Shown in pieces: positions 3,246 through 59,727 of a DNA stretch of 64,000 bases. The notes beneath the pieces are model-generated. The model worked only from the letters and a program-made list of their open reading frames with translations. It was not told where the DNA came from and searched no databases. The DNA is taken from IMG/VR virus record IMGVR_UViG_3300025016_000004; one strand, 5' to 3'. This DNA comes from a virus (lineage: Duplodnaviria > Caudoviricetes). Each line of letters starts with the position of its first letter. Position 1 is the first letter of the stretch. A program made the translations under genes and the position numbers.

Positions 3246-3638
3246 ATGGAAAATAAATTAAAACTTTCCGAAATATTTCAGGAAGAACCTATAGTTGTTT
3301 ATCATGGTACATTAACCAAATTTGTTGATTCAATTAAAAAAAATGGATTAACTCATAAAAATTATTATGAACCAAAATGGTTTATGGTTTCTACTGATAT
3401 TGAAAGTGCTTTATATCATGCAACACCAGATGAGGGTGAAACTGCCTCAGTTATTGAGTTTAAAGTTCCTCTAACTAATGATAAATGGTATGGTTATCCT
3501 TATTTTTGGCCACCCTATAAAAGAGATGGTAATTCTATGTGGTTTGCATTAAAACAACCATTAGATGGTAATCTAATCAATAAAGTACACAACGTACCTT
3601 ATGCAACCTTTATTAAACAAAAATATAAGGGATATTAA
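3246..3638 (+). CDS. ADP-ribosyltransferase/Tpt1-like fold protein
   Basis: VYHGT...SIKKNGL...STDIESALYHA motifs. Confidence 0.5.
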   Translation: MENKLKLSEIFQEEPIVVYHGTLTKFVDSIKKNGLTHKNYYEPKWFMVSTDIESALYHATPDEGETASVIEFKVPLTNDKWYGYPYFWPPYKRDGNSMWFALKQPLDGNLINKVHNVPYATFIKQKYKGY

Positions 3639-9218: not shown

Positions 9219-9234
9219 GTTCATTGACATATTG
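9219..9234 (+). promoter_or_regulatory. boxA-like motif
   Basis: GTTCATTGACATATTG; similar copies at 57863 and 59712. Confidence 0.45.
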
Positions 9235-57394: not shown

Positions 57395-57862
57395 AATAAT
57401 AATATTATGACAACTATGACAATTCTAAAAAACTTCCATATGGGAACCATAAAATGTTTTCCATGGAAAATAAATTTCTTGCACATGTAGATACCAAACG
57501 TATGAATTGGTATCTAGATAGGGATTTAGCTATCATGTTAAACGAATATAGATACCAATCATTTTTAAAAGGGGCTATCCAAATCACCTGGTTCACCAGC
57601 CGAAGAGAGAAACTTCAAGCCCTTTTTATTTTTTAAATGCTGAAAATCAAGTAGTTAAAAAAAGTTTAAAATTTTTTGTTATTTTACTTGTTTTTTAAAT
57701 ATATATTATGTACATTTGCAGAGTAAAAATAGGAAAGTTATAATGAGGCGAAATCATTATAAAACAACTTTAAGTGAGGCTCTTAAAACTTTTTTAAAAA
57801 AAATCGCAAAAAACTTGTTTAATTAAAAAATAAGTTGTATATTTGCACAAGAATTAAAATAC

Positions 57863-57878
57863 GTTCATTAAAATATTG
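57863..57878 (+). promoter_or_regulatory. boxA-like motif downstream of tandem promoters
   Basis: GTTCATTAAAATATTG; TATATTTG at ~57838. Confidence 0.45.
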
Positions 57879-57886
57879 AAAATAAT

Positions 57887-58706
57887 GGGGTGCTTATGCT
57901 CCTTCCTTCGGGAAAAGATAAACCTAGTGATAGGTATAAAGTGATGTCCAAACAAGGCATTGCGTTGAGGGCTTTCGGGTCAACAATCTGTGTAAGCATA
58001 TTAACTACGAACAAGGGTCAATGGCTGAATGGCTGAGATTAACGAGTTCACTCCCTAGCTTCGGGGAGTTGAGATAGAAATATCAATAGGCGGTTAGTAG
58101 ATTTCGGTTGAAACGTGTAAAAAGCGGATAGGCTGATTTCATCATGATTTGTTATGGAATGTTTAATAATGATGCTTCATTATAATCTTGGGAAACCAAG
58201 CGTTATATTAAGTTAAGTTAATTTGTAAATCTAAGTAATGAAGAAATGATGTGGTGGTAAAACACTGCAACGGGGTGTCGTAAACTAAACTGGTCAAAAG
58301 CCAGCACGTTTGTCAACTGCTAGACACATCCTGTAAGAGAGAGCATCGCTAATCAATTAGGTGGGGCGATAGCCCAACCACTTTTATGTTAAAAAAGCAA
58401 AGATAAGTAAAAGTTCTAGCGGTCACGGATACAAAATTAAGTTATCCCACTGAAATATGTGGGCAGTTATTAACCTCACAAGGGTAACGCTGAAACGGAG
58501 ACTAGGTATCGTTAGTAGGAGGGTCGCACCTTCTCATCCTCGCAAGGGAGCTAGGTAGTGAAATTGGTTTATATCAATCTGTGGTAAAAGAGTTTGCAGT
58601 CACTCCAAGACTGTCTTAATGATGCCTACCAAGTGGAAACATGAGGTGTGTGAAATAGGGAAACCGAAAGCAAAAGGTATTACAAGGGCCCAACACTCAA
58701 GCCTTT
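57887..58706 (+). ncRNA. Giant structured ncRNA, GOLLD-like
   Basis: ~820 nt with no ORF, GC-richer than its flanks, many GNRA/UUCG hairpins, adjacent to tRNA-like genes. Confidence 0.62.
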
Positions 58707-58708
58707 AA

Positions 58709-58780
58709 CGGAGATATCGTCTAATTTGAAGACACTTCCTATTGCTGGAAGGTAATGTAGTATCAAATCTACCATTCCGA
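58709..58780 (+). pseudogene. Degenerate tRNA
   Basis: CTTCC/GGAAG stem; aberrant loop and T-loop. Confidence 0.5.
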
Positions 58781-58844
58781 CTATAAAATGAATATGTGAA
58801 TACATGACGATATGAGTTGCCTACCACACATATTCATTTTGAAA

Positions 58845-58934
58845 GGCGCAGTAGCTCAATTGATAGAGCGTGTTGAAACATCCGATAAACGGTTGAAGTA
58901 GGCAAGGTTGGTGGTTTGAGTCCATCTTGTACCA
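58845..58934 (+). ncRNA. tRNA-like RNA with an expanded anticodon loop
   Basis: Canonical acceptor, D and T arms; CCG-ATAAA-CGG insert. Confidence 0.55.
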
Positions 58935-59015
58935 CTAAATGGGGAGTGTAGCCAGACCAGCATTGAGTTGGTATCTGTAACCAAGCTGAAAATGCAATTG
59001 TGAATGTTGCCACTT

Positions 59016-59168
59016 CCATAAAATCATGGAAAGCAAATGAAAAGAATTTTCATGTCTGAATGTGGGACGCATTTCGGACAATAAACAAAAACAAGTGGAG
59101 GCGTTGTCGTTGGGCAAGTCAATGAAACTTGAAGCCCATCCATCACGAAGTGTGGATGGGTAGTTCAC
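59016..59168 (+). mobile_element. Orphan IS200/IS605 right end with an omega-RNA-like region
   Basis: Near-identical to 56570-56669; ends in GTAGTTCAC. Confidence 0.75.
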
Positions 59169-59178
59169 AGTCCCTAGA

Positions 59179-59403
59179 GTGATGATTAGAACTAAATATA
59201 AATGTGAGAATGAATTATCATACATTCCAACTGAGTTAGCTTTAATGGATGCTTTTGATAAAAATGATATTGTCGTTCAAGTAACTTATAAGGCGAAAAC
59301 TAAATATAATGTTGAATTATTATATACTGAAGTATATCGTATCAGTGAAAATTTAGAAATTGATGAATTATATAAAAAAAATATAAGACTGATAATCAAG
59401 TAG
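59179..59403 (+). CDS. Hypothetical protein
   Basis: ORF track. Confidence 0.45.
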   Translation: MMIRTKYKCENELSYIPTELALMDAFDKNDIVVQVTYKAKTKYNVELLYTEVYRISENLEIDELYKKNIRLIIK

Positions 59404-59711: not shown

Positions 59712-59727
59712 GTTCTTTGAAATATTG
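59712..59727 (+). promoter_or_regulatory. boxA-like motif
   Basis: GTTCTTTGAAATATTG. Confidence 0.5.

Follow-up and report, generated by a model that had tools for sequence, protein, structure and literature searches.

A probable divergent GOLLD RNA with a boxA-like leader and a non-decoding cloverleaf at its 3' end in viral DNA

The window analysed here, which is the whole stretch of 64,000 nucleotides of viral DNA, contains 33-35 tRNA genes and, at 57887-58704 on the + strand, a locus that is predicted to specify an RNA of 818 nt. The 5' end of this RNA was set by the invariant 16 nt GGGGTGCTTATGCTCC, with which all close relatives begin, and the 3' end by the end of the match to the Rfam GOLLD model. 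These limits coincide with the 57887-58706 of a preliminary description, which had been made from the sequence alone and had proposed a GOLLD-like non-coding RNA that is ORF-free and GC-enriched. Both properties are borne out: the longest ORF within the RNA has 48 aa, and the G+C content is 0.411, compared with 0.292 in the 2.9 kb upstream and 0.308 in the whole window. A blastn search of 50,697 deposited phages gave no match to the stretch. The relatives described below sit on viral contigs of 187-326 kb, from which we infer a phage context of the RNA, and all of them have tRNA arrays downstream. The features of the locus are collected in Table 1. These include a small ORF that is preceded by the promoter-like site P1, lies between this site and the second one, P2, and overlaps the latter; no such ORF was seen ahead of the RNA in the relatives L118 and L092.

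Table 1. Features at and around the RNA locus (window coordinates).
Feature	Position	Strand	Remarks
Upstream promoter-like site P1	57688-57719	+	TTG, 20 nt, TACATTTGC; Bacteroidota -33/-7 type
Small ORF	57716-57826	+	36 codons from TTG, 27 from ATG at 57744
Proximal promoter-like site P2	57815-57846	+	TTG, 20 nt, TATATTTGC
Leader with boxA-like element	57850-57886	+	core GTTCATTAAAATATTG at 57863-57878
5' domain of the GOLLD-like RNA	57887-58269	+	60 pairs tested for covariation; lineage-specific, varies between GOLLD lineages
3' domain	58270-58704	+	homologous to the conserved GOLLD 3' domain (Rfam RF02032)
Variable linker in the 3' domain	about 58336-58405	+	
Non-decoding tRNA-like cloverleaf with 3' ACUA tail	58709-58786	+	5 nt past the RNA
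12-bp hairpin between cloverleaf and next tRNA-like element	58787-58838	+	MFE -12.5 kcal/mol, z -2.75
Second tRNA-like element, anticodon region aberrant	58845-58934	+	Rfam tRNA 34.6 bits
Third tRNA-like element	58940-59025		6-bp acceptor-like stem; no tRNA call

The GOLLD RNA family (Rfam RF02032) was reportedly described by Weinberg et al. in 2009, and its gathering score in Rfam is 150 bits. In a sensitive scan of 57500-59300, the GOLLD model matched 58270-58704, on the + strand only, over its full length (positions 1-416 of 416) with 59.5 bits and an E-value of 1.7e-14, and ROOL and other large-RNA families gave no match in the same region at E-values up to 10. An Rfam scan of the window at gathering thresholds reported tRNAs alone and no GOLLD, and when the 64-kb window was scanned whole in the same sensitive E-value mode, the GOLLD match was lost to the speed filters. 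Routine annotation thus misses this RNA, because its score lies far below the gathering score and because the filters drop the match. The family name given in the preliminary description, which suggested the GOLLD and ROOL covariance models as a check, turned out to be essentially right, although the score does not reach the curated threshold. The alignment to the model contains 26 marks, corresponding to about 13 non-canonical consensus pairs among roughly 92 model pairs. The RNA lacks one 5-bp hairpin of the model and has an additional 28-nt hairpin next to the GCAA hairpin. The junction hence has an extra hairpin 5' of the GCAA hairpin and lacks the hairpin that follows it in the model, so that two junction hairpins are present, arranged otherwise than in the model; the loop of the first is not conserved, and that of the second is CGCAA in most members. 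As the score is far under the curated cut-off, family membership rests on bridging relatives and on the shared architecture.

Relatives were sought with a pattern of three motifs that are common to the GOLLD model and the window, which yielded 110 loci on viral contigs, many of them deriving from one very large viral data set. One of these, L092, can be aligned to the window over the full 880 nt, the 5' half included. A scan for the 16-nt 5' end added ten more viral loci and 21 metagenome contigs, all confirmed with a family profile. The identity to the window is 99.6% for L252, 89% for L232, 79% for L118, 78% for L229 and 73% for the L092 group, and L116, L115, L023 and L233 match the window in patches. 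When 185,579 species and reference genomes were scanned with the 16-nt 5' end, 87 matches were obtained, compared with about 280 that are expected by chance for a 16-mer in this set, and none of them was a family member by profile search; no prophage or host has therefore been identified. A search for related loci via the neighboring AAA+ ATPase found none in viral contigs. Nor was a protein gene found that is constantly linked to the RNA, since AAA+ and NUDIX genes accompany it in the near-identical L092 group only and a sigma factor gene in some of the loci. Two contigs that had been fetched by chance pattern matches contain a HEARO RNA above the gathering score (L120:2715-2934, + strand, 123.9 bits; L088:4520-4767, + strand, 97.4 bits).

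The Rfam GOLLD scores of the relatives are 181 bits for L114, 171.8 for L113 and L117, 97.4 for L092, 65.9 for L118 and 57.6 for L116, with the window at 59.5. This continuous fall links the window to accepted GOLLDs. The three members above the cut-off (L113/L117 and L114) have the same 16-nt 5' end, approximately 395 nt upstream of the 3' domain, and the same leader, and the complement of the 5' stem is likewise kept in L113 and L114. In the 108 other GOLLD-pattern matches the 16-nt 5' end was not found, even with four mismatches allowed, so that it is the mark of a single sublineage with members on both sides of the curated threshold. The 5' domain is conserved within this sublineage only. 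When twelve other loci were tested, five, among them contigs from a very large viral data set, scored only 89-99 bits over the full GOLLD model, i.e. under the cut-off of 150. Much of the family is thus evidently excluded by the curated threshold, below which there seems to be a big GOLLD-like clade. Loci with such scores include human-gut-type viral contigs. On the viral contigs L030, L067, L100 and L109, the full-length matches of 89-99 bits each adjoin tRNAs.

The preliminary description had called the RNA highly structured, and this claim is supported by one kind of evidence and not by another. Thermodynamics does not support it, as the minimum free energy of the whole RNA is no better than that of shuffled sequences (z-scores of -1.15 for the + and -1.31 for the - strand); whole-molecule folding energy was accordingly dropped as uninformative, and the structure was tested against the relatives instead. 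By covariation the claim holds. For the 3' domain, the Rfam consensus was projected onto the alignment of the clade and supplemented with one extra long-range helix found with RNAalifold, and the controls were pairing partners that had been slid along the alignment as well as 500 shuffles. Over the whole RNA and 11 distinct sequences, 95.2% of 154 pairs form, compared with 37-42% when slid, and 71 of the 154 change on both sides (12-20 when slid), a number that none of the 500 shuffles reached. With six sequences of the 3' domain, 96.9% of 96 pairs form (35-42% when slid) and 37 are compensatory (2-9 when slid; again 0 of 500 shuffles), and for the 5' domain 97.2% of 60 pairs form (39-44% when slid), with 21 being compensatory (1-7 when slid). 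Both domains thus possess a conserved and covarying secondary structure.

The helices of the GOLLD model that are present and covary comprise the first stem with its UCAAAAG hairpin, the long-range helix, the multi-stem junction and the terminal hairpin with its conserved loop, whose closing pair varies through GC, CG, UA and AU. The extra helix pairs the internal loop of the first stem with the segment that comes right after the conserved AAGUAAAAGU; five of its pairs are compensatory, and the Rfam consensus letters are complementary at these places, too. It could be intra- or intermolecular, because one covariation-predicted GOLLD pseudoknot proved to be a bridge between subunits (PMC12286853). 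Several hairpins had been named in the preliminary description. Of these, CCUCACAAGG (58474-58483) and CCUCGCAAGGG (58540-58550) are hairpins of the GOLLD model, the second of which covaries with CG and UA at two pairs, and UGUGGUGG...CACUGCA (58251-58270) covaries at three of its six pairs. The 5' stem GUGCUUAU/GUAAGCAU (57890-57897 with 57992-57999) is invariant in the close clade; its complement occurs at shifted positions in L113 (ATAAGCAC, position 138) and L114 (TAAGCAC, position 168), which turns the two G-U end pairs into G-C and U-A. An alignment over all GOLLD lineages with MAFFT and RNAalifold lost its register in the second half and was replaced by that of the close clade. A pairing of GGGGUG in the 3' domain with CACUC in the terminal loop, as proposed by RNAalifold, was set aside, because the Rfam pairing shows true G-C to A-U compensation.

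GOLLD RNAs form cages of 10 to 14 subunits, combine a variable 5' with a conserved 3' domain and occur in tRNA arrays (PMC12286853, PMC12990946). Cryo-EM revealed that the stoichiometry of the cage depends on junction hairpins and that the P21a/P21b loops bridge the subunits (PMC12286853, PMC12990946). The RNA described here resembles them in its size of about 800 nt, in the division into a variable 5' and a conserved 3' domain, in the significant full-length match of the latter, in the same helices including the long-range helix and the conserved terminal loop, and in its phage context inside tRNA arrays. It differs in its low score (59.5 against 150 bits), its own 5' domain with the invariant 16-nt start, the rearranged two-hairpin junction and a dedicated non-decoding cloverleaf at the 3' end. 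Also its promoters are of the Bacteroidota type, whereas the published GOLLDs come from Lactobacillales, streptococci, mycobacteria and lake or marine phages (PMC12286853, PMC12990946, PMC6582537). ROOL, another large ornate RNA of phages and prophages that is found near tRNAs and forms an octameric cage (PMC12286853), is similar in size class, in the phage and tRNA neighborhood and in having no assigned function, but the ROOL model does not match at E-values up to 10, and the sequence and structure are GOLLD-like.

It could be argued that these differences betray a separate, undescribed class of large phage RNA, in which a few GOLLD motifs are shared by convergent or modular similarity and not by common descent. 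Such a class would account for a score well under the curated threshold, for a 5' domain unlike that of most GOLLD-pattern loci and for a junction that has gained 28 nt and lost one hairpin relative to the model, but it would not account for a match that covers the whole model at an E-value of 1.7e-14, for the presence and covariation of every major GOLLD helix, or for sequences above the Rfam cut-off that share the 5' end and the leader and are linked to the window by intermediate scores. We regard a separate class as very improbable. The sequence comparison shows homology to GOLLD, and we would classify the RNA as a divergent variant within this known family, for which the curated threshold is not reached while every testable structural and contextual feature agrees. 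Most probably it is a divergent GOLLD member or subfamily that joins its own 5' domain to the conserved 3' domain and is made in the way of a stable RNA.

The RNA is present in environmental RNA libraries. Of a 2.2-kb stretch at the locus, 18 groundwater or aquifer DNA runs hold 0.95-0.99 of the words, and six RNA-library runs hold a part. In four aquifer metatranscriptome libraries the sole high-depth contigs cover 57897-58702, 57935-58701, 57893-58701 and 58017-58619, and contigs on the RNA thus attain 806-809 nt. In three runs the contig passes straight into Illumina adapter at 58701/58702, and in one run adapter directly precedes 57893; the orientation of the adapter is the same in all, which fits RNA of the + strand under the usual dUTP convention. 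As these data are assembled contigs and the four samples may stem from one campaign, the starts, ends, strand and level are to be taken as hints only, and the contig depths of 118-625 versus 3-4 cannot rank expression. Neither 57600-57890 nor the region of the cloverleaf at 58710-58920 has RNA-library cover, which is not evidence of a removal of leader or cloverleaf. The libraries are good evidence for the RNA in the environment, with boundaries that match the prediction, and the contig stops at 58701/58702 are a moderate hint that the 3' end of the RNA lies there. The preliminary description had made its proposal depend on a model hit and on a discrete transcript; in addition to the GOLLD match, RNA-library contigs were found that are confined to 57893-58702.

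The RNA had also been thought to possess its own promoters, and two sites of the Bacteroidota type, TTG-N20-TAnnTTTG, are found by sequence upstream of it (Table 1). The motif TANNTTTGC occurs 26 times in the window, compared with 16.4 expected, and mostly on the + strand. P2 lies 41 nt upstream of the first base of the RNA and is its candidate promoter; P1, which precedes the small ORF of 27-36 codons, may or may not feed the RNA. Among the 18 listed family rows, a TAnnTTTG box is located 47-68 nt upstream of the RNA in 15, and L232 and L113 have none within 100 nt upstream. Upstream of the RNA in L232 lies a tRNA-like remnant. A tRNA was at first read directly upstream in both L232 and L113, but ARAGORN calls none there.

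The leader between P2 and the RNA was described earlier as boxA-like, and such an element is indeed present and conserved. All 18 listed family rows, including two above-threshold GOLLDs, have the leader AACGTTCTTTAAAATATTGAAAAT 2-4 bases before the GGGG of the RNA start. The leader folds no better than shuffled sequences and is predicted to be unstructured. Its core word is rare, with 0.018 occurrences per kb. Around the GOLLD pattern, in a region that extends 900 nt to the upstream and 600 nt to the downstream side, it is confined to the leader position, where it is also found in canonical GOLLDs of another lineage (L039, 335 bits). In L226, ATATTGAAA is tandemly duplicated directly before the RNA start. 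The boxA leaders of rRNA operons and the nut sites of lambda load NusB-NusE. The leader resembles them as a short, unstructured and U-rich element (GTTCTTTRAA) just past a promoter and before a long untranslated structured RNA. Near-identical words are found 130-170 nt upstream of the 16S gene, and downstream of TAnnTTTG boxes, in three Bacteroidota genomes, with ACGTTCTTTGAAGTGTTG in Nitritalea, GATCTTTGAAAGTTTGG in Chitinophaga and AAGTTCTTAAAGAG in Mucilaginibacter, compared with ACGTTCATTAAAATATTG in the leader of the RNA. The difference from boxA leaders is that the element here precedes a phage non-ribosomal RNA and phage tRNA genes, and no boxB or boxC partner was identified. The 16-nt leader word GTTCWTTRAAATATTG occurs exactly twice in the window, in the leader of the RNA and at 59712-59727, just after an intrinsic terminator and directly before a tRNA-Pro gene. 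A copy with one mismatch lies at 9219-9234, inside the tRNA cluster at 9-13 kb. Only this 16-nt form is informative; the 11-nt boxA word was rejected as evidence, because with 14 occurrences versus 14.4 expected it is not enriched in the window. The distribution of the 16-nt word suggests that it may be a general stable-RNA signal of the phage, and the leader fits a boxA-type signal for stable-RNA transcription.

As alternative to a boxA, the leader could be a promoter for a phage sigma factor or polymerase that starts at the GGGG, or a processing signal that defines the 5' end. The conserved block comprises only about 24 nt and directly abuts the invariant GGGG, the phage encodes sigma-70-like factors, L232 and L113 lack the TAnnTTTG box within 100 nt upstream, and one RNA-library contig starts at 57893 against the adapter, all of which would suit such a role. 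Yet the block has no -33/-7 motif, its word is too rare for a general phage promoter word, and a promoter in the copy at 59712 would defeat the terminator that it follows. Together with the close resemblance to the elements upstream of 16S in the three Bacteroidota genomes, this makes a promoter or processing signal rather unlikely, and the boxA-type reading is the one that we prefer.

The sequence downstream of the RNA had been noted to contain degenerate tRNAs, and what is found there is a conserved cloverleaf without a call by a tRNA finder, followed by further tRNA-like elements. Every member of the clade has a cloverleaf of 70-78 nt, 5-8 nt past the RNA. It consists of a 7-bp acceptor-like stem, a D-like arm, an anticodon-like arm with a loop of 3-8 nt, a T-like arm with the loop UAUCGAAU, and an ACUA or ACAA tail, and the anticodon-like loop has no conserved triplet across the 11 copies. 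All 11 fold as cloverleaf without constraints; the acceptor stem covaries through GC, AU, CG and UA, and 13 of the 19 cloverleaf pairs are compensatory. Neither ARAGORN nor the Rfam tRNA model calls the element of the window, which is a tRNA-like structure and not a tRNA. This copy is the weakest of all, with a slipped acceptor stem of 4-5 bp, and for this reason may be a poorer RNase P substrate than those of the relatives. In L116, two tandem non-decoding copies follow the RNA (1715-1872, - strand). The hairpin next to the cloverleaf of the window was not equalled by any of 200 shuffles. The second tRNA-like element, with 34.6 bits, reaches the Rfam score for a tRNA but has 30 nt in place of the anticodon arm, and is not called by ARAGORN; stretches homologous to it and to the third element exist in L092 and L118. 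In L229, ARAGORN identifies a tRNA of the suppressor type (anticodon UUA) at 3253-3328, within the array of tRNAs that follows the RNA.

The place of the cloverleaf is occupied in a similar manner in the wider family. Among 100 GOLLD-pattern loci with enough flanking sequence, 66 have a tRNA on the same strand that starts 150-250 nt past the end of the pattern, i.e. within about 90 nt of the end of the RNA, and none has a tRNA start at 250-400 nt. These tRNAs have nine different specificities, and the cloverleaf of the window starts at an offset of 163 from the pattern end. A canonical GOLLD (L018, 305 bits) has an uncalled cloverleaf in the same slot, and in L039 the slot holds a terminator-like hairpin with a U run, so that a tRNA-like handle is not obligatory. 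As tRNA, cloverleaf or terminator-like hairpin can all take the slot, the constant feature is an element that defines the end. In 20 GOLLD loci without a called tRNA in the slot, no self-cleaving ribozyme or other known RNA was found at gathering score. tRNA punctuation and tRNA-like 3' handles are known from mitochondrial polycistrons and, in mammals, from MALAT1/mascRNA. The arrangement is alike in that a long non-coding RNA has a cloverleaf immediately behind it, at which cutting by RNase P would generate the 3' end; it differs in the bacterial-phage setting, and cleavage here is only predicted. At most GOLLD loci the handle would be a real tRNA, whereas the clade of this RNA has a non-decoding mimic.

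Instead of mainly being a cutting handle, the cloverleaf could be a functional tRNA mimic, for example a decoy for tRNA-targeting host defences or a cargo or partner of the cage, or else a decayed tRNA gene. Its conservation with strong covariation in spite of its inability to decode, the tandem copies in L116 and the further odd tRNA-like elements behind it in the window can be read in this direction. However, it sits at a fixed distance of 5-8 nt from the RNA end, in the slot that true tRNAs of nine specificities fill at two thirds of the loci, which fits a role that depends on position and not on a specific sequence. We therefore regard these alternatives as less probable than a handle; the two readings do not exclude each other.

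From these elements, a pathway for the formation of the RNA can be proposed. As its anatomy suggests, the host RNA polymerase would start at the Bacteroidota-type promoter about 40 nt upstream of the RNA. By analogy with rRNA operons, the boxA-like leader would then, somewhat probably, load the Nus-type antitermination machinery, so that the long untranslated and folded RNA is finished. RNase P would cut at the 5' side of the cloverleaf as it does at a tRNA, for which we see about an even chance, and thereby release the RNA, which would be trimmed back to the terminal hairpin; the cut would leave a few bases, whose removal would give the observed 58701/58702. Cleavage by RNase P at the tRNA or cloverleaf is proposed here as the simplest mechanism for the definition of the end. 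The finished RNA would probably self-assemble into a closed homo-oligomeric cage like the solved GOLLDs, with the difference that the two-hairpin junction that sets the stoichiometry is rearranged. The cargo or target of such a cage would probably be tied to the large tRNA and translation programme of the phage.

More generally, and as a tentative proposal, GOLLD RNAs might be made in the manner of rRNA and tRNA, with a boxA leader that renders the polymerase termination-resistant and with a 3' tRNA, or a dummy tRNA kept for this purpose, as cutting handle. If this is true, GOLLD lies next to tRNAs because tRNA punctuation is used in its biogenesis, and not because the two are functionally tied. 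A limited literature search found no paper that links GOLLD to huge phages, to boxA or to a tRNA-like processing handle, which is not proof of novelty.

GOLLD RNAs are among the largest non-coding RNAs of bacteria and phages and were recently shown to build cages from RNA only. The present locus adds a subfamily that is divergent and well supported, comes from giant phages whose promoters are of the Bacteroidota type, and is missed by the curated model and the standard filters; the family is probably much larger than catalogued. It also adds natural expression, as the RNA is found in libraries of a natural aquifer community. Its rearranged junction is a natural variant of the stoichiometry-setting element and useful for structural work. 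Finally, two biogenesis signals are offered, an rRNA-like leader and a 3' tRNA or tRNA-like handle, and the latter may extend to two thirds of 100 GOLLD-like loci.
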